The notes beneath the pieces were generated by a model. The model was not told the DNA's origin, ran no database searches, and saw nothing but the letters and a program-made list of their open reading frames with translations. 60,984 bases of DNA from NCBI GenBank assembly GCA_039208735.1, contig JBCCQY010000047.1, positions 1-60,984 on the forward strand, in the 5' to 3' direction. Shown in pieces: positions 29,582-53,912 of this stretch (positions are counted from its first letter, which is position 1; the number at the start of each line of letters is the position of its first letter). The stretch comes from Myxococcota bacterium. GTDB lineage: Bacteria; Myxococcota_A; UBA796; GCA-2862545. Position numbers and translations under genes: made by a program.

Positions 29582-29834
29582 GCGTCAAGGGTACGGCGCC
29601 GCGGGACGAAGTCAACCGTGAGAGGAGTCGCGGCCGTTTCCAGCCTGTGACGTTGGCCCGCTGGGCGATCGCATCTGACCCCGTGCCCCGCACAGACGAA
29701 CGCGCCTCGCATTCCGCACGAAGAGCAGGTTTGAATTCAAGTCGCCCCATCAGTGGCACGAGCGTGAGACGACGGTGCCGCCCTTAAAGGACGCGGTTCA
29801 GCTACAACCGGGGGCCGTCACGACAGGGGGGAAC

Positions 29835-31280
29835 ATGGAGACAACGAAACTACAACAGTTCCTGAGCTTTCGATACCAAGTTGCCCTGGCTCTGATTGCA
29901 CTGCTCATCGTGGTTTCCTTTGGGTTGGTGAACTGGGTTCTTTCGGCACAGTTGGCGGATGCGCCAACGATCAATGTCACGGGTCGCCAACGGATGCTTT
30001 CCCAGCGGGTTGCCTTGTTTACGCTTCGGGTGTTGGCTGAGCCGGATGCGGCCATCCGCGACCGTCACCTTGCCGCACTCGAACGCGCAGTGGACGAGAT
30101 GGGTTGTGATCACAGCGCTCTCATCCAGGGCGATGCGGCTCGAGGGCTTCCTGCCGCGCCCGATCGCGTTCGCGACCTGTACTTTGGCGAGACCCAGCTC
30201 GATGCCCGGGTACGGAGCTACCTCGAGGATGCACGGGCCGTGGTGGCTCTCCAAAGGCAGAGAGGGACGTCCGAGCAGCCGCAAGCAAGGCTTCCGCGAA
30301 GTGAGAATCGCGAGTCGGATCCGACGGCAGGTCAAGCGACCGCGCTGCTTCGTGACCTCGACAAAGTGGTGACCCAACACGAAGCCGCGGGTTCCGAACG
30401 CGTCCGGTGGCTGCAAGTGGCCCAGTTCGCGCTGCTTATCTGCACCTTCATCTTGCTCTGGCTCGAAAGCCGCACGATCTTCCAACCCATGGTGCGGTGG
30501 GTCAGCACCTACACCGACACCCTGCAAAAGGAAGTGGAGGATCGACGAGCCGCGGAGGCCCGAGCGTCCGAAGCCACGCGGGCGCAAGGGCGGTTCTTGG
30601 CCAAGATGAGCCACGAACTCCGCACCCCATTGAACGCGGTCATTGGTTACGCCGAACTGCTATCGGAAACGCAGGATCCCATTGAGCGCAAAGAATGTAC
30701 GGATCGGATCCTTCAGGCGGCTAGCCACCAGCTGAACATGATCAACGATCTGTTGGATCTGGAGCGGGTTGAACGCGGAGGCTGGACCTTCGAGATTCGA
30801 GAGATCAACGTCTCAACCTTGATTGACGACGTCGTCAACACCACCCAGCCCCAGTGTCAGGCCAATGGAAACCGCCTCGTGGTGGAGGTTGCGCCGAACC
30901 TGCCTCCCCTGCACTCCGATCGCGTCCGGCTCTCCCAGATCCTGATGAACCTCGTTGGCAACGCGGGGAAGTTCACCGAAAACGGTCTCATCCAACTGCA
31001 GGTGCGCTCTGCGACGTCGAACCCTCGGCTCCTCGAATTCACGGTGCAGGACACGGGCCCAGGAATCCGAGAGGAAGATCGACGACGAATCTTCGAGAAG
31101 TTCATTCAGGTCGATGACTCACCGACCCGTCGGCAGACAGGGGCGGGACTCGGTCTGGCCATCTCGAAGGAACTGGTCGAAGCGTTGGGAGGCTCCATCC
31201 GAGTCACCAGCGAGTTGGGAACAGGCTCGGCGTTCACCGTCCTTCTTCCGTTCGAACGAAAGAAGAACGAGCTGAAATAA
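29835..31280 (+). CDS. Sensor histidine kinase with PilJ/NarX-type periplasmic domain
   Basis: INVTGRQRMLSQR; SHELRTPLN; NAGKFT; DTGPG; GAGLGL. Confidence 0.93.
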   Translation: METTKLQQFLSFRYQVALALIALLIVVSFGLVNWVLSAQLADAPTINVTGRQRMLSQRVALFTLRVLAEPDAAIRDRHLAALERAVDEMGCDHSALIQGDAARGLPAAPDRVRDLYFGETQLDARVRSYLEDARAVVALQRQRGTSEQPQARLPRSENRESDPTAGQATALLRDLDKVVTQHEAAGSERVRWLQVAQFALLICTFILLWLESRTIFQPMVRWVSTYTDTLQKEVEDRRAAEARASEATRAQGRFLAKMSHELRTPLNAVIGYAELLSETQDPIERKECTDRILQAASHQLNMINDLLDLERVERGGWTFEIREINVSTLIDDVVNTTQPQCQANGNRLVVEVAPNLPPLHSDRVRLSQILMNLVGNAGKFTENGLIQLQVRSATSNPRLLEFTVQDTGPGIREEDRRRIFEKFIQVDDSPTRRQTGAGLGLAISKELVEALGGSIRVTSELGTGSAFTVLLPFERKKNELK

Positions 31281-45915: not shown

Positions 45916-46944
45916 CTACGACTGGCGCAGTAGGTAGCGGTTCGAGATGACCTTGAAGGACAGGCGCTTGCCAAGGGTAGGACTCGTGATGCCCTGGCGC
46001 GAACGAACCACGAGCCCCTCACGTTCATTGCGGGTGCCGGGGTAGCGCCCTTCCGCCAATTCGAGCAACGACGCCTGGTCGTGAGCGAACGCCTCGCCCT
46101 CTTCGATGACGGGCACCGATACAAGATCGAGCTGCTCGCACAGGGCGACGCGCTCGTCGTGCTTCAGGTGCCGGTGCTCGACTAAATCGTAGGCATCGAA
46201 GACGAACCAGGCGAGGTCGTCCAGACCTAGACGGTTCTTGTGTACGCCCGGACCGCACAACTCTCCCTGCAAGGCATACCGTCCGTCGACCGAACGAATC
46301 CGCGCCTCGAGCTCGAGCGCATCCGCCACTTTCCAGTAGCCCCCTGCGCCTTGGCGAATGGAGTAGTTGCGACTGCACGCGTGAAACTCCCCGTCGTCGG
46401 GGTCGATGAGAAACGTCGCGCTGGCCCCGTCACACTTCAGGGTCACGACGTAGGAAAGGCCGTTCAGCTCCTCAACGATGCGGGGCATGGATTGAATGCG
46501 CATTTCCTCGGTGCGAGGCACCCCAGCGGGGAATGGCCCCCGGATGTCGGTCGCCCCAGAGGGCAGCGGGGGCTCATACTTGCCCACCCCCAGCTGGTCG
46601 GTCACATCCGTGCCTTCGTCGAGATCCGTAGGCAGTCCCACCACGCGCAACGGCATCAGCAGTCCCTGCGACAGGCAGCCCCGGAGCCGCATCGTGCGAA
46701 TGCGAAACCGCTCCGGGCGAGGCACCGAACCCAACGCTTCCCCTTTGGGCGTCCAAAGGAACTGGAAGGCCTTCTCGTCAGGGGGAATGGCGTCGATCTC
46801 GAAAAACACCCCGAGATCACCTGGGGAAAACTCCCCTTTCTTGGTCACGCACTGCCAACCGTTGATGCGGGTGGCCACAATGACATCGGCACCCGGGATG
46901 GGTTCGACAGCAAGAACGCGTTGGATGGATGCAAGCTTACGCAT
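45916..46944 (-). CDS. RNA ligase (ATP), DRB0094/Rnl5 family
   Basis: MRKLASIQRV..VEPIPGAD (OB-like N-terminus); KCDG motif I; QGE; EGLV; SFKVISNRYL. Confidence 0.9.
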   Translation of the reverse strand: MRKLASIQRVLAVEPIPGADVIVATRINGWQCVTKKGEFSPGDLGVFFEIDAIPPDEKAFQFLWTPKGEALGSVPRPERFRIRTMRLRGCLSQGLLMPLRVVGLPTDLDEGTDVTDQLGVGKYEPPLPSGATDIRGPFPAGVPRTEEMRIQSMPRIVEELNGLSYVVTLKCDGASATFLIDPDDGEFHACSRNYSIRQGAGGYWKVADALELEARIRSVDGRYALQGELCGPGVHKNRLGLDDLAWFVFDAYDLVEHRHLKHDERVALCEQLDLVSVPVIEEGEAFAHDQASLLELAEGRYPGTRNEREGLVVRSRQGITSPTLGKRLSFKVISNRYLLRQS

Positions 46945-47015
46945 GGGATGCGCCCCGCGACACGGATGGACTGCGGTTTTGCGTAGTCGGTCCATCCCCC
47001 TCCGTCGAGTGAGGT

Positions 47016-47588
47016 CTACGGCGTGGCGTTCAGGGGGCATCGCGACCGGGCCATGGCGAGCATCTCGGCCTGGTCCGAAAACACGTCATCAAGCTGTCCC
47101 AACGCAAAGGTGTCGAGCGAGGGCCCCCACCATCGGCAGCCTACGGCACGGTCGCGGTCATCGTAGGCAATGGCGGAGAACACGCCTCGGTACCGGGTGC
47201 ATTCTCCATGACTCCAGCGCGTTTCGAAGCGCGTCCACAACGATGAACCTGTCTCAACCTTGATCATTTCGAGGCTCGCGCCTCCCGCAGGAAGGGGATG
47301 GTCTTCATCCGGTTCAACCGCCACGACCACCTCGACCCGCTCCGCTCGGCCCGTGGTTTCGACGACCAATTGCCAATCTCGGCCGTCACACTCCAAGAAT
47401 GCCAAATCCAGTCGCGCGGGCGGAGCGGCTACGCCAGGCTCGGTTGAGTAGGGAGGATCGGTCGGGGAAACCGGGCCCTTGGGCAAGGGCGCGGTTGGGA
47501 TCGATGGGGGGCTCCAAGACGGCCCCGCGCCCGGAGCGACACTGTCATCTCCGCCTGAGCACGCCACCAGTAGGCTCAGCAGCACCAT
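47016..47588 (-). CDS. Hypothetical lipoprotein
   Basis: Lipobox LVAC; Pro-rich linker; Cys-containing domain. Confidence 0.6.
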   Translation of the reverse strand: MVLLSLLVACSGGDDSVAPGAGPSWSPPSIPTAPLPKGPVSPTDPPYSTEPGVAAPPARLDLAFLECDGRDWQLVVETTGRAERVEVVVAVEPDEDHPLPAGGASLEMIKVETGSSLWTRFETRWSHGECTRYRGVFSAIAYDDRDRAVGCRWWGPSLDTFALGQLDDVFSDQAEMLAMARSRCPLNATP

Positions 47589-48104: not shown

Positions 48105-49352
48105 TCACGCAAGATCCATCGCTTCGACCTCGACCGACTCGAAGGTCTCCTTCACCGCTTCGCGAAGCTCCGCCGCGGTGGTGCTCCGCAACCAGTCCAG
48201 ACCCCGATCCCCGTGGAGGATGCGCGCCAACGGGACCTCGCGAATGGAATCGGCCTCGTACCAAAGTCGGACGAGGACGCGGCGATCTTGGTCTTGAAAC
48301 GCCTCAAGTTGACCCATTCGAGCGAAGAACGTGCGACGGAACCGATCCCTTAGCCCCTTCACCGCGGCCAGGAAGCGGTCCCGGCTCTCGGTGGCCCGCA
48401 AGCGATCGATCAGCGTGGTGAGCTGGGCCGCATTTAGCTCGGATGGCGACTTCCCTTGGACGTCATTCACGTACCAAACCACCTCATCCCATTCGAAGCC
48501 TTCACCCTCACAATCCTCCTTGAAGGTCTCGACATCGTACGGAGGGGCTTCTGCGCCATCCAACCAGGCGGTGAGGACGTCAGCCACGTCGGCCCCCGCC
48601 TTCGGGAACGAACGGTCGACCAACGCCGCACAGCGCGTCTTCGTCACCACCATCGTGTGGGTTTCTGGATCCACATCGGCGACAACCGTGAACTCGTAGT
48701 CGAGACCTTCACGCTGGATGGGCTGCAACCCAACCTTGCGCGGAACCGACTGGCCCTTTGCATCCTGCTCCACCACCCACTGCACCTTGGTCCGCAAGGT
48801 GGCAATGACGTGACCAGGATACGAGAGAATCGCCTCAATAAGACGATTATGGAGCGGGGTTGCGTCTCGCCATCCCGCAAAACTGTTCTTCGTCTTGGAT
48901 CGAATCGTTCGTTCGTGAACGAAATCGAGCAAGCCTCCTTCGCCCGCCCACGCATGGGAGAGCGAGTCGAGGATGAGCACGGGATACTCTGCTTCTGCAG
49001 CCGCACGAATCGCGGCAAGATACTTCTCGACGCTATACTTGCCGGCCCCCGGCATTGCCGCGAGATCGAGCACGTCGAAGTCGAACGTCCCGCCATCGGG
49101 GTTGATTTCGTCGGCGTAGAGATTCGAGCTCGCATGCTCGGTATCGATCACCGCAAAACGCTGATCAGATTCGCGCAAGCTTTGCTTGCTGCTGTTCTGA
49201 TTTCGCGCAAGCTTCGCTTGCCGCTGGTCAGGGCCAATGAGCCCATGCGCGATGCGCAGCGCGGTGAACGTCTTGCCACTGCCGGCGGGACCCAGCAACG
49301 CCAAACGAAGCCGGGAATCTGTACGGCGGGCCTTCTGGAAAAGAGTCAACAA
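48105..49352 (-). CDS. AAA_24 / Sak4-like P-loop ATPase with C-terminal extension and a 21-aa repeat insertion
   Basis: FQKARR...GPAGSGKT...VIDTE...ILDSLSHAWAGEGG...PIQREGLDYEF...KTRC; TTG start after GGAGG. Confidence 0.85.
   Translation of the reverse strand: MLTLFQKARRTDSRLRLALLGPAGSGKTFTALRIAHGLIGPDQRQAKLARNQNSSKQSLRESDQRFAVIDTEHASSNLYADEINPDGGTFDFDVLDLAAMPGAGKYSVEKYLAAIRAAAEAEYPVLILDSLSHAWAGEGGLLDFVHERTIRSKTKNSFAGWRDATPLHNRLIEAILSYPGHVIATLRTKVQWVVEQDAKGQSVPRKVGLQPIQREGLDYEFTVVADVDPETHTMVVTKTRCAALVDRSFPKAGADVADVLTAWLDGAEAPPYDVETFKEDCEGEGFEWDEVVWYVNDVQGKSPSELNAAQLTTLIDRLRATESRDRFLAAVKGLRDRFRRTFFARMGQLEAFQDQDRRVLVRLWYEADSIREVPLARILHGDRGLDWLRSTTAAELREAVKETFESVEVEAMDLA
49162..49233. repeat. 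Double-hairpin palindromic element, copy 1 (in frame inside the ATPase gene)
   Basis: 69/72 identical to 51307-51378; two GCAAGC-N3-GCTTGC hairpins. Confidence 0.92.
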
Positions 49353-50079: not shown

Positions 50080-51150
50080 TCAGCGGACGACCGCGTTGTC
50101 CGGAATGACCGTGCCGGCCGCGACGACCACCCGGTCTCGCAGGATGGCACCATCGCCGATCTGGGCGCCATCGCCAACCACCACATCGTGGCCCAAGGTC
50201 ACATTCGACCCAATCTGAACGTTGTCGCCGACCTGAGTCCGGTCACGCAGCGTGGTGAGGTCACCCACGGTGGTGCCCGCACCGATGGTGGCGTCATGTC
50301 CCACCACTACGCCCTGTCCGAGGGTCACCTGGTTGCCCACATCGGCGCGGTCACGAACAACCGAGCCTTCACCCAACGTGGCTCCCGCTCCGATGATGGC
50401 GTCATGACCCACTCGGGCATGGGCCAGAATCACCGCACCGTCACCGATGTCGGACCGATCCCGCACCACCGCGCCAACCCCGACGACCACGTTCGCCCCG
50501 AGCGACACCCCACGGCCGAGGGATGCCGTAGGATCGATCAACAGCCGCTGACCGTTGATTTGGATGAACGGCGTAGAAAGGATGCCGAAGTCCGTGACCA
50601 CATCAGACCAGTTGTAGGGCGTTGTGGCGGCGTTGCTCCAGAAGTGCTCTCCCCCCATCGGCACCGCGGTCCCCTGGCCGCACGTCAGGACACACAGCGC
50701 ATCATCTTGCGCATCCGCCGTCATCTCGAACCCCACGAACACCTGCTCGTTTGGGGCCACGATGAAGTTGGGGATGTCCACTACATAAAAGTCGTTGGGC
50801 GCGCCAGGCGTGGGGGTTTGCGTCAACACCGTACTAAACTGCAAGACCGGGGTTGCATCGGGAAAGTCCGTGTTTTGCACCCAGACGTCCAACCGATGAC
50901 TCCGCGCCCCATTGCACAACGGGATTCCAAGCTGATCGACGAGACTATATACCAGGTTATCCACCTCAAAACGACTGATACCACCGACAGCGAGGCGCAC
51001 GCCGTAAACGTGGCTCACCTCGGAAGGAAAGATCGGAATGATCGCGTTGGCGACTTCACATCCCTGGAGTCCACTGGTTTCGAGAGCCTGCGCGGAGGCG
51101 GTAGGAACCAATGCAGCAACGACAAACCACGTCATGGAGTTCTCCCTCAA
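50080..51150 (-). CDS. Secreted protein with C-terminal left-handed beta-helix (hexapeptide repeats)
   Basis: Signal peptide ending ASA-Q; about 140 aa of [IV]Gxx[AV]x repeats. Confidence 0.8.
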   Translation of the reverse strand: MRENSMTWFVVAALVPTASAQALETSGLQGCEVANAIIPIFPSEVSHVYGVRLAVGGISRFEVDNLVYSLVDQLGIPLCNGARSHRLDVWVQNTDFPDATPVLQFSTVLTQTPTPGAPNDFYVVDIPNFIVAPNEQVFVGFEMTADAQDDALCVLTCGQGTAVPMGGEHFWSNAATTPYNWSDVVTDFGILSTPFIQINGQRLLIDPTASLGRGVSLGANVVVGVGAVVRDRSDIGDGAVILAHARVGHDAIIGAGATLGEGSVVRDRADVGNQVTLGQGVVVGHDATIGAGTTVGDLTTLRDRTQVGDNVQIGSNVTLGHDVVVGDGAQIGDGAILRDRVVVAAGTVIPDNAVVR

Positions 51151-51306
51151 AGCACCACCACCGTGTCACGCGATCCACCATGTGATTAGGTGAAAACCTG
51201 ATCCTGGACACCGTCGGACCAGTCGGGACAAATCAGCTTGCAGGAGCATCAGCGACGAAAGCTGAACCGCGTCGGCCTGCAGGCGCGTAGCGCCGAAGGC
51301 CAGCGG

Positions 51307-51378
51307 TGATCAGACTCGCGCAAGCCTTGCTTGCTGCTGTTCTGATTTCGCGCAAGCTTCGCTTGCCGCTGTTCAGGG
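51307..51378. repeat. Double-hairpin palindromic element, copy 2 (intergenic, overlaps stop codon of the vWA gene)
   Basis: 69/72 identical to 49162-49233. Confidence 0.92.
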
Positions 51379-53439
51379 TTTTTCGCAAGGATTTCCGTCG
51401 TCATCTAGCCAGACGACGCGCTCCTCAGCCCCTTGAACGAAGGTCTGCGCTAAACAGCGCCGTTCACCAGGCACACGCTTCGACCATCGCCTGGGCAAGC
51501 GTTCGACCTCACGGATGAAGTCGAGCAACGCTTGGTCTTCGACCCGAAACGGTTCCCTCATCGCGTCGTGGGCCATCCAGTAGACGTGCCTTGGGCTCAA
51601 CGGGCTGACCGGGCTGCCTTCGAGGGCCAACGCCAGGCTGGCCGCGGCGGCGGCCATTCGCGTATCTTGCGAGCCATGGCCGAAGCGCTCCTGCGGCGTG
51701 TTGGGCAAGGCCACGACTTGCTCAAACGCTCTTTGCCCCTCCCAGCCCGGGGGCTCCGCCCGCAGCGTCAGCGTACCCAAGTCCTTCGGTGCCCATCCGC
51801 TCGCGAGCTGCACCTCATAGAGCATGGTGACGCGGTGGCCAGGGCCCAGATCACCGGCGTCGACCGTGTCATCGCGAAACTCGGCATCGGCCAACTGTCG
51901 GTCGCCGTAGCCAACTTGGCGCCAGGCCCGAACCGCACGGGAGTTCCATCGAATCTGGGCCTTCGCGTCGCGGACGACCACCACGAAGTTCTCAACGAAT
52001 TGGTCCACCAGGAGGTGGGTTACCCAGTCCCGCCCATCGATGTAGGCGTAATTGCCATCGCTTGCGTCCGCGAACGCCTCCATGAGGGCATCGCGATACC
52101 CGTTGCGGCCGAACCCAAGCGCGGTCAAACCGATGCCCCTTTCCGACCAGGGCCTCACCAGGTCTGCAAGCTCGTTGCCATCTTGAAGGCCAAGGTTAGG
52201 CATTCCATCGGTGCAAAGCACGACCCGATGGGCTCCCTCACGGCCTAGTCGCTGCGCGGCCGTGGTGTAGGCAAGCCGTAGGCCGTCTTCAAGCTGCGTT
52301 CCTCCGCCCGCTTCGATGAACCCGATGGCCTGCGAAATGACCGGGGCGTCTCCTTGGGTGGGCGAAAGAACGACCTCCGCCGTCTCCGAGAACTGGACAA
52401 CCGCCACGCTATCCTCTTCATCCAGTTCCCCCGCAAGGGTCTCAAGGGTGTCCTGGACCAACGAGAGCGGATCCGCCATCGAGCCTGAAGCATCAACAAG
52501 GAGGGTGAGGTGCAACGGAGGTCGTTCGTCGGCGTCCATGGGCTCGGTCATCAGGCCAACGCGCAACAGGTGAAACCCCTCGGTCCATGGGCTCGGCACA
52601 AGCTCGACCTCCGCGCCGAACAAGTCGCCTTCTTCAGGATGGGGAAGCGTGTAAGGAAGCGCATTGACGAACTCCTCAACGCGCACCTGACCAAGCTCGG
52701 GCCACTTTCGATGGCCGACAAGCCCGCGGCTGAAACTGTAGGACGCGGTGTCGACATCGAGGGCGAACGTCGAGGTCGGACGACGACGCGTGCGCCACGC
52801 CTGGTTGGGCCCCCGGTCCGAAAGCACCCCGTGCGAAACGAACGACCGCAGAACCGGAGGCCCCTCGAGCCGGGTTCTCAGGCCAACGATGTCGACGCCT
52901 TGGATCGCGGCGATGGTGACGTCCAAGTCGTTGCGCAGCGAGATCACCAGGTCTCCCTGAGCAGCTGCCCGCTTGAGCGTGGCGTCCTGATCGGGGGACG
53001 TCAACAGCGCGACTCGGGGTGTCGAACGCGGGAAGACGTCGAGCACAAAGAGGGTTTGCAGTAGGGTTTGGGTCTGCCCCTCCTTGGTGAACAGTACATC
53101 GACGTAATTGCCAGGGTTGAGGAACCCGCCGAGCGCGGCACCGTCGGCCACATCGATGAGGGTTCGACGCATCCCGTCAGGGATGAGGAATTCGGGGGTC
53201 GTCCGATCATCGGGTTGGGGAATCGGCGGCACGGTAGCCGCGGTTATCGGCTGGGTCGACACTCGAGGGTTCGTTGGCCACAGGCCGTAGCCCAACCCAA
53301 GCGCGACCAACGCCGCAGCTACCACCCACCACGGACGGGGAGAAGGCACCACTACGGCCGGTCGGAGTCGCTCCAACGCCTCCGGCGAGAGCTGATGCAC
53401 GTCGTACCACGATGCAACGTCACGATCGTCGATGGTCAC
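51373..53439 (-). CDS. Membrane-anchored RcpC/CpaB + vWA (YfbK/DUF3520-like) protein, putative anti-sigma partner
   Basis: GTGA overlap with sigma stop; TM; IPDGMRR...GGFLNPGNYVDV...SLRN (CpaB); STFALDVDTASY, RVEEFVN, DASGSM, RQVGY..R...F.DD..DAGDLG.GH. Confidence 0.8.
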   Translation of the reverse strand: MTIDDRDVASWYDVHQLSPEALERLRPAVVVPSPRPWWVVAAALVALGLGYGLWPTNPRVSTQPITAATVPPIPQPDDRTTPEFLIPDGMRRTLIDVADGAALGGFLNPGNYVDVLFTKEGQTQTLLQTLFVLDVFPRSTPRVALLTSPDQDATLKRAAAQGDLVISLRNDLDVTIAAIQGVDIVGLRTRLEGPPVLRSFVSHGVLSDRGPNQAWRTRRRPTSTFALDVDTASYSFSRGLVGHRKWPELGQVRVEEFVNALPYTLPHPEEGDLFGAEVELVPSPWTEGFHLLRVGLMTEPMDADERPPLHLTLLVDASGSMADPLSLVQDTLETLAGELDEEDSVAVVQFSETAEVVLSPTQGDAPVISQAIGFIEAGGGTQLEDGLRLAYTTAAQRLGREGAHRVVLCTDGMPNLGLQDGNELADLVRPWSERGIGLTALGFGRNGYRDALMEAFADASDGNYAYIDGRDWVTHLLVDQFVENFVVVVRDAKAQIRWNSRAVRAWRQVGYGDRQLADAEFRDDTVDAGDLGPGHRVTMLYEVQLASGWAPKDLGTLTLRAEPPGWEGQRAFEQVVALPNTPQERFGHGSQDTRMAAAAASLALALEGSPVSPLSPRHVYWMAHDAMREPFRVEDQALLDFIREVERLPRRWSKRVPGERRCLAQTFVQGAEERVVWLDDDGNPCEKP

Positions 53440-53912
53440 AAGACCTCCTGATCGGGATGGTTGGCCCGCCAGGTAGCAAGCCGATGCCGCGCCCGCGCAA
53501 GCCAAGTGAGAACCGTGTTGCGAGGGCGCCCCACCAGCTCCGCGATTTCACGGGCGGTCCACCCCTCGACCACGTTGAGAAACAGGACCTCTCGCTCTGC
53601 CTCGGGAAGCGTGCCCAGCGCATGGCCCACTTCGTCATGGGCAACCAGTGCGGCCTCCGTCAACGGCCGACCCGCGACCTCATGATCGAGGGGCACCATC
53701 GGAACCACCGCCCGCCGACGTTGGAGGTCGATCCACAGATTGCGCAGGGTTGTGATGAGGTAGGCCGGTTCAACCGCCTGGCGACGCCCGTGCACTCGAA
53801 TCCACGCATCGTGGACCAAATCTTCGGCCTGCGTACGGTCGTGAGTGAGGGCCAACGCATAACGAAATGCGCGGTGGAGCACGGCGGGGTCGGGGGCGTC
53901 GCGTCCGGACAT
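53436..53912 (-). CDS. ECF RNA polymerase sigma factor
   Basis: AEDLVHDAW; RNLWID..RR; LPEAEREVLFL...EIAELVG..RNTV..WLARAR. Confidence 0.9.
   Translation of the reverse strand: MSGRDAPDPAVLHRAFRYALALTHDRTQAEDLVHDAWIRVHGRRQAVEPAYLITTLRNLWIDLQRRRAVVPMVPLDHEVAGRPLTEAALVAHDEVGHALGTLPEAEREVLFLNVVEGWTAREIAELVGRPRNTVLTWLARARHRLATWRANHPDQEVL

Follow-up and report, generated by a model that had tools for sequence, protein, structure and literature searches.

A family of small hairpin modules at TGATCA-like sites in a Myxococcota genome, with some copies in frame in genes

A 63-bp palindromic unit lying in frame in an ATPase gene of a Myxococcota bacterium belongs to a family of small hairpin modules found at sites resembling TGATCA, with such a hexamer left at both ends; on balance, these modules are regarded here as likely moved in trans, as folded single-stranded DNA, perhaps by an HUH-type enzyme. 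The window analysed is a stretch of 60,984 nucleotides from a genome designated G000, which was compared with G001, G002 and G003 of the same genus (five genus genomes in all). The G000 assembly comprises 288 contigs and 9.4 Mb and is 92.7% complete, and that of G002 is 82% complete. A sequence-only reading of the window had proposed a dispersed palindromic element that adds peptide sequence in frame, similar in effect to Rickettsia palindromic elements, and this is borne out by homologues without the added residues and by 93 loci in G000. Beyond that reading, the TGATCA target is regenerated at both ends, other modules exist, the modules are associated with stop codons, and a single reading frame is retained.

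In the window, the unit (module P) occupies 49164-49226 on the minus strand, limits that assume a TG^ATCA cut, the exact cut falling somewhere within the GATC core. Its two predicted GCAAGC-N3-GCTTGC hairpins, 32 bp apart, were confirmed at 49175-49189 and 49207-49221, with an AAA loop and a C-GAA-G loop, respectively, on the minus strand; the motif has four exact matches in the window, and six with one mismatch, against 0.17 expected. The bounding repeats noted from the sequence, CGCTGATCAG (49159) and CGCTGGTCAG (49222), do lie 63 bp apart, but the boundary repeat is the hexamer TGATCA and not a 10-mer, the extra CGC match being unique to the window copy. The 5' junction reads TGATCA (49162-49167). 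The 3' junction is TGGTCA (49225-49230), and a related strain has TGATCG there; the two changes between them are synonymous, and TGGTCA is probably later drift from TGATCA.

The host gene (48105-49352, minus strand) encodes an AAA_24 (PF13479) ATPase with a predicted RecA/RadA-like fold. The insert of 21 aa occupies about residues 41-61, and both Walker A and the DxE strand on either side of it are preserved. The 63-bp unit is a real in-frame insertion. As had been expected of the 21 residues between Walker A and the next strand, the site is empty in 11/11 aligned homologues, the six closest being exactly 21 aa shorter; the nearest, P0002, has LIAPDQRLAVIDTE at this point, the G001 homologue is empty as well, and a close homologue carries the label Myxococcota. 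Walker A and DxE are separated by 40 aa in the protein of the window, vs 15-29 aa in the remaining 114 of the 115 proteins that could be parsed (five of 120 could not). At the DNA level, a metagenome search for empty ATPase sites in loci related to P0002 gave 218 candidates, with none confirmed. Run X2, which comes from a different study, contains a 288-nt contig that covers 49017-49303 with eight substitutions and without gaps, and the insert is therefore present in a related strain, about 3% divergent; run X1 was left uncounted, as it may be the source sample. In the AlphaFold model of the host (mean pLDDT 91), the insert lies between helix 26-37 and strand 65-69 and is a low-confidence excursion from the confident core of the predicted structure, its pLDDT of about 52 being due in part to alignment gaps.

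Genome-wide searches in G000 gave the 93 loci of this family, with full-coverage modules of types R75 (28), P (20), R77 (20), Q (13), U (5), S (4) and T (2). Measured from TGATCA to TGATCA, the modules are 31 (Q), 32 (T), 34 (S), 63 (P), 75-77 (R) and 106 bp (U) long; P looks like a pair of Q-like units (31+32) whose inner junction has changed, and only P and R75 have lengths divisible by three, R75 carrying stops in four of six frames. Modules occur alone or stacked into mosaics in either relative orientation (R+P+, R+P-, U+R+, Q-S-). The distances between paired TGATCA hexamers have a maximum at 63 bp (16 pairs, two of them in unrelated sequence), and nothing comparable is seen with six control hexamers. 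The nearby second copy pointed out earlier is real, with 51307-51378 aligning over 72 nt at 95.8%. This intergenic copy (51307-51375, minus strand) ends in a TGTTCA junction that contains the TGA stop of a vWA/YfbK gene (51373-53505, minus strand), and through a TGATCA junction it is joined to a 77-bp R module with GNA/GNNA-loop hairpins (51230-51312, plus strand). Two findings that would have spoken against an element, a 21-aa segment shared by all orthologues and a family of only two copies, were looked for: homologues lack the insert, the loci number 93, and the insert recurs in the related strain of the other study. A dispersed insertion family is thus almost certain. Among seven loci compared with Rfam, the sole match was a sub-threshold one to RNase MRP, and integron cassettes were rejected, the neighbours being ordinary genes in both orientations. 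R-like tandem arrays with locus-specific spacers, mostly without TGATCA, were also seen in G000 (C3, C20, C42, C79, C107, C127, C152, C169 and C231), many R-like arrays standing at contig ends or directly after a stop codon.

Insertion is very probably target-specific, with the site regenerated. Inner junctions are TGATCA in 24/25 cases, and outer 5' junctions deviate mostly at hexamer position 1 (3/15 in G000, 6/32 in G002); the deviation of outer 3' junctions is broader than on the 5' side, and module interiors have drifted by about 3% per site. At the C6 locus, GATCA stands at the insertion point in the DNA of both G001 homologues, and at C147 the position-1 mismatch stems from an ancestral Arg codon, so that the mismatched base is derived from the target. 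The form of the junctions, N-GATC-A...T-GATC-N, fits either a crossover within GATC or a 4-bp duplication. A 6-bp duplication signature was found in 0/7 deviating solo copies in G000 and in 1/16 in G002, where truncation or a shift of register accounts for some of the deviations; in one copy, L139, the two ends deviate identically, as duplication would give. At several G002 3' junctions the hexamer is CGATCA, CAATCA or GAATCA, contrary to one fixed cut, and a fixed TG^ATCA cut is weakened by these differing ends (positions 1-2) and by the TGGTCA/TGATCG pair of X2. The cut is placed no finer than within GATC because the mismatch at the window junction is probably later drift. Every insertion leaves two usable targets, and arrays therefore result; some R arrays lack TGATCA ends. 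The terminal repeat is a 7-bp inverted arm only, largely the palindromic target itself, vs the terminal inverted repeats of 15-30 bp of MITEs. TGATCA is neither over- nor under-represented in G000 (ratio 1.08). Another hexamer, GAGCTC, is strongly under-represented across this genome (ratio 0.34), perhaps because a restriction system recognises it.

Most modules lie outside genes: with coding assignments resting on the analysis's own gene caller (7970 genes, 90% coding), 74/93 G000 loci are intergenic, and 6/42 loci with both junctions are coding, vs 1432/1635 free TGATCA sites. A stop codon is found at the junction of 19/36 intergenic G000 loci, vs 63/203 (p=0.005), and of 20/35 G002 loci. 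Peptide addition is a minority outcome, with 6/22 full 63-bp units in frame in genes, plus one decayed copy in the window. In addition to AAA_24, with its empty sites and 21 aa, the in-frame hosts are an SDR oxidoreductase (C147; 20 aa absent in 15/16 homologues, with one partial), a sodium:solute symporter (C95; a decayed copy, 57 bp relative to its paralogue) and three proteins that have no Pfam match: C6 (21 aa absent in 2/2 G001 homologues), C190 (a native charged segment partly replaced, net +12 aa) and C27 (no homologue in four genus genomes). The decayed window copy (30272-30321, plus strand) lies inside a PilJ-sensor histidine kinase gene (29775-31280) and has an 18-nt in-frame deletion (SEQPQARLPRSENRESDP); its alignment score of 50.9 was reached by 0/5995 random windows, and the kinase insertion corresponds to a 14-aa gap in two homologues (net +9). 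Empty sites thus support every in-frame host except C27. In C172, by contrast with such in-frame cases, an FG-GAP gene, which also has a later stop, is truncated by a 108-bp Q+R insert, with an FG-GAP-like reading that resumes beyond it. C54 was removed from the count of hosts as a probable gene remnant, and the coding-overlap candidates C20, C36 and C95:23096 were discarded as weak or spurious. Two further observations concern coding copies: a possible decayed half copy in frame at G000:C87:19993-20031 (DPRQARGVRSQN), opposite a 13-aa gap in an internal repeat of that protein, and reciprocal insertions in paralogous symporter operons, in frame in a gene at C95 (33120-35302) and as an intergenic mosaic at C8 (20252-22550).

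Four of the six frames of P are open, and all seven full-length protein-profile matches (C54 included) fall in one of them, with none in the other three. The chance of such a single-frame outcome is 0.10-0.23 per event and about 1e-6 to 1e-4 for six events, before allowing for the post-hoc choice of frame. The retained frame is the most hydrophilic of the four (GRAVY -1.97 vs -0.51 to +1.08). Changes in the six coding copies are spread over codon positions 1, 2 and 3 as 9, 8 and 6, respectively, without a synonymous excess, and old coding copies erode by deletion. Since, in addition, the 62-bp sister family of G002 (see below) has no clear in-frame copy, tolerance rather than function is indicated, and peptide addition is read as a result of length plus selection; it is probably a tolerated by-product and not the element's purpose. 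Positive selection for the peptide in the role of a functional tag or linker would agree with the single frame used throughout, with the C190 insert partly replacing a native charged segment and with retention in the strain about 3% divergent, but is very unlikely given the codon-position counts, the erosion of old copies, the unrelated host proteins and a sister family of 62 bp.

Outside G000, a DNA search of 40 relatives gave a match in G002 only, and the P type was not found in the other 39. The family in G002 is a diverged sister (43 matches) with a unit of 62 bp in 22/30 spacings, often in tandem and with partial units at some ends; no clear in-frame copy was present among the 40/43 matches that were read. 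G003 has its own tandem arrays of a 51-bp hairpin repeat (57 matches over many contigs) without TGATCA ends, which share with module R a 19-base core, GGCCTGCAG..CCGAAGGCCA, found 16 times in G000 and 0 times in a reversed control; in a scan of 49 family genomes, the R core was found in G000 only. Over 154 genomes of the order, a short-unit pattern was enriched in G000 only. A pattern scan of genome contigs found 51 loci, 20 of them of the 62-bp type and from one Myxococcales MAG, which was not treated as independent of G002, the other 31 being singletons that lack the module interior. Matches in viral scans (5 and 1) were judged to be chance, and the R pattern was found 0 times in metagenomes.

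Several properties of the sequences suggest that they act as a folded single strand, chiefly their compensated stems and GNA loops. Folded as DNA, both sister families give z = -4.1 for the strand with GNA loops and about -3 for its complement. Over 25 aligned copies from two genomes, 94.8% of cells are paired and 3/16 pairs show compensatory change, a count matched in 102/500 shuffles and a covariation that is essentially one of two lineages. GNA loops occur in 52/53 G002 hairpins (20 loci, some overlapping) and in 21/25 cases at the second hairpin of G000 P. Of the R hairpins, 93/107 have a GNA or GNNA loop; the first hairpin of G000 P has non-GNA loops in 22/22. An internal ATCAG is conserved in G000 and G002 and pairs with the terminal CTGAT in predicted folds, a pairing that resembles the guide for target choice in HUH elements. 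In DNA, d(GNA) loops with a C:G closing pair are especially stable (PMC3201870). A single-stranded route is accordingly given slight preference, and an HUH enzyme is proposed tentatively.

The flanking RAYT/TnpA(Y1) gene that the sequence-only reading had envisaged was not found: G000 and G002, at 92.7% and 82% completeness, have no match to PF01797 or NF047646, PF01797 is matched in 0/5 genus genomes, and NF047646 has one match below its cut-off, in G003 only and without a module-like flank. The same reading's placing among REP/MITE-like elements is likewise not supported as stated, and no GTAG/CGTC tag is visible in the sequence. The divergent REP-tyrosine-transposase-like ORF of G003 (L248, 1078-2133 of C255), below the NF047646 cut-off, stands about 3.6 kb from a 51-bp array. 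Only partial matches to Y2_Tnp were obtained in G000 and G002; both genomes have IS110, tyrosine recombinase and RT genes, and G000 also has a resolvase gene. No module-like sequence was seen beside the IS110, integrase, resolvase and RT loci examined (best E 0.26), no IS with the ends of the modules was seen among these or the Y2 loci examined, and BLAST of neighbours, together with Pfam searches of 35/266 neighbouring proteins, revealed no recurrent or mobile gene and no transposase domain. In G003, an array at C576 (L257, L190) is split by a cassette with a tyrosine-recombinase (integrase) gene and an IS91-type transposase gene, and the IS91-type element ends in CCGCTGATC, as module P does (a 9-nt match). 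This cassette, the best lead to a mobiliser, was set aside as probably reflecting the insertion of an IS into an existing array, because 0/26 homologous loci carry such arrays (best single array match E 0.004) and G000 is without close homologues of the transposase, as is G002. Within this taxonomic order, GATC follows the stem in 4/20 parsed IS91-type ends, and downstream ends of the order's IS91-type elements (L300-L326) share YGTYCAA, a long stem and then TGGATCTT- or TTGAAGTT-like letters. A Dam-family methylase-like gene was also observed in G000 (C40:40748-41647), with orthologues (L269-L273), in all five genus genomes.

Put together, a unit of about 31 bp with one hairpin may be ancestral, and the 63-mer would be a fused dimer (31+32). 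Strand transfer within the GATC core would create two new targets per event; gene-breaking copies would then be purged, leaving intergenic copies, those at stop codons and those in frame, and the hydrophilic peptide of the last would fit a surface loop before eroding. Against this picture stand the failure to find a mobiliser, the non-GNA loops of hairpin 1 of G000 P and the variable G002 3' junctions. The contigs, the source of evidence on alleles, revealed neither an excised intermediate nor a same-strain allele with an empty site. The N-GATC-A...T-GATC-N junctions would equally well suit a minute MITE mobilised by a DDE transposase that prefers TGATCA and makes a 4-bp GATC target duplication, and so would the short terminal inverted arms (TGATCAG/CTGATCA), which pair in 93% of cells, and the deviation repeated at both ends of L139. 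However, monomers have only 25-28 bp between junctions, which is short for two transposase-binding ends; the internal hairpins covary and have strand-specific GNA loops, and a transposase domain is absent among the 35 neighbouring proteins scanned of 266, making this explanation unlikely. That the modules are instead a REP/BIME family whose RAYT (Y1) is missing from the assemblies or lost would account for the mosaics, the intergenic position and the stop-supplying ends, all of which, like occasional intragenic dimers of 20-30 aa, are known from REPs (PMC3733652). The completeness of G000 (92.7%) and G002 (82%) leaves room for such a gene, but the missing GTAG/CGTC tag, the lack of a PF01797 match in all five genus genomes and the one sub-cut-off NF047646 match, in G003, render it quite improbable.

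A route without a dedicated transposase, in which (methylated) GATC is nicked or cut and hairpin fragments are captured during repair or ligation, has been suggested for SDR5 at HIP1. In that case the repeat enters GCGATCGC after its third base, which directed cutting has been put forward to explain in part (PMC4390886). A D12-class methylase gene in 5/5 genus genomes, its G000 product scoring above the TIGR00571 dam cut-off, and a palindromic end that fits mixed-orientation mosaics agree with this; yet TGATCA is not depleted or enriched, the methylase also occurs in genomes without the element and so does not track it, and the gain in copy number and the conservation of hairpins are left unexplained, so that this route too has a low probability, about equal to that of the REP reading. 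Retron- or msDNA-derived cDNA inserted at TGATCA is more doubtful still: msDNA-like repeats exist in Nannocystis and RT genes in 5/5 genus genomes, but module similarity is absent near the 10 RT loci examined (best E 0.74). Local duplication or an assembly artefact might be suspected in a genome as fragmented as G000 (288 contigs), with arrays often at contig ends; it is refuted by the distinct flanks of the 93 loci, by homologues whose site is empty and by the gapless 288-nt contig from another study. Movement in trans as folded single-stranded DNA remains the preferred reading. An extension of it, in which 31-106-nt single-stranded hairpins rebuild their GATC-core target as self-templating minimal mobile DNA, moved by an IS91-type HUH or another host-encoded enzyme and not by a RAYT, is offered as a speculative and rather unlikely possibility.

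Among known systems, SDR5/HIP1 of the Nostocaceae is similar in its very small size, in its precise insertion into a palindrome with a GATC core and in having no known mobiliser or function (PMC4390886; PMC5861425; PMC13756078). SDR5, compared here from the descriptions in later papers, is a 21-nt repeat inserted at GCG^ATCGC (PMC4390886; PMC5861425; PMC13756078), whereas the present family comprises several modules of 31-106 bp, forms mosaics in both orientations, resides in a Myxococcota-like host and uses a target, TGATCA (ratio 1.08), that is not iterated, unlike the highly iterated HIP1 GCGATCGC. Rickettsia palindromic elements resemble P in placing a palindromic repeat in frame in unrelated genes with a conserved peptide (PMC10969869); P differs in its size (63 bp vs about 150 bp), its fixed regenerated hexamer target, its free-living 9.4-Mb genome, the location of about a quarter of full units in genes and a 62-bp sister that cannot stay in frame. 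REP/BIME/REPIN sequences with RAYT also form species-specific hairpins and mosaics, end at stop codons and yield occasional intragenic dimers (PMC3733652; PMC2817692), but the modules lack the GTAG/CGTC tag, have no RAYT found with them and carry the target hexamer at both ends. Terminal inverted repeats of 15-30 bp, as in MITEs, are also missing from them. IS91-family elements produce no direct repeats and have a single-stranded circular intermediate (PMC9330008); the sequence link of the modules to them is limited to the 9-mer, 0/26 other loci being array-flanked. In a full-text literature search, mostly without subscription papers and supplements, no TGATCA-bounded repeat and no such myxobacterial inserts were described; the main text of PMC3733652 does not contain 'Myxo', and for Sorangium, many repeats are noted (PMC3372372).

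A tractable system for the movement and peptide addition of very small repeats (RPE, SDR, CGTC REPs) has so far been lacking, and this family could serve as one, with its defined 6-bp target, its documented empty sites and minimal substrates of 31-34 nt, short enough for oligonucleotide synthesis. The 63-bp units of G000 and the 62-bp units of G002 form a natural comparison that separates transposition from selection at the protein level, while one frame of four is retained and inserts stand at successive stages of decay. If the self-templating reading is correct, one genome would show a series from fresh to eroded copies in which repeats become protein loops, and SDR5-type elements would gain a testable mechanism.

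Two other genes were observed near the phage-like AAA_24 gene of the window: one for an RNA ligase (PHA02142 and RNA_ligase domains) at 45916-47040, and one for a secreted-looking protein that ends in a hexapeptide-repeat beta-helix at 50080-51150.
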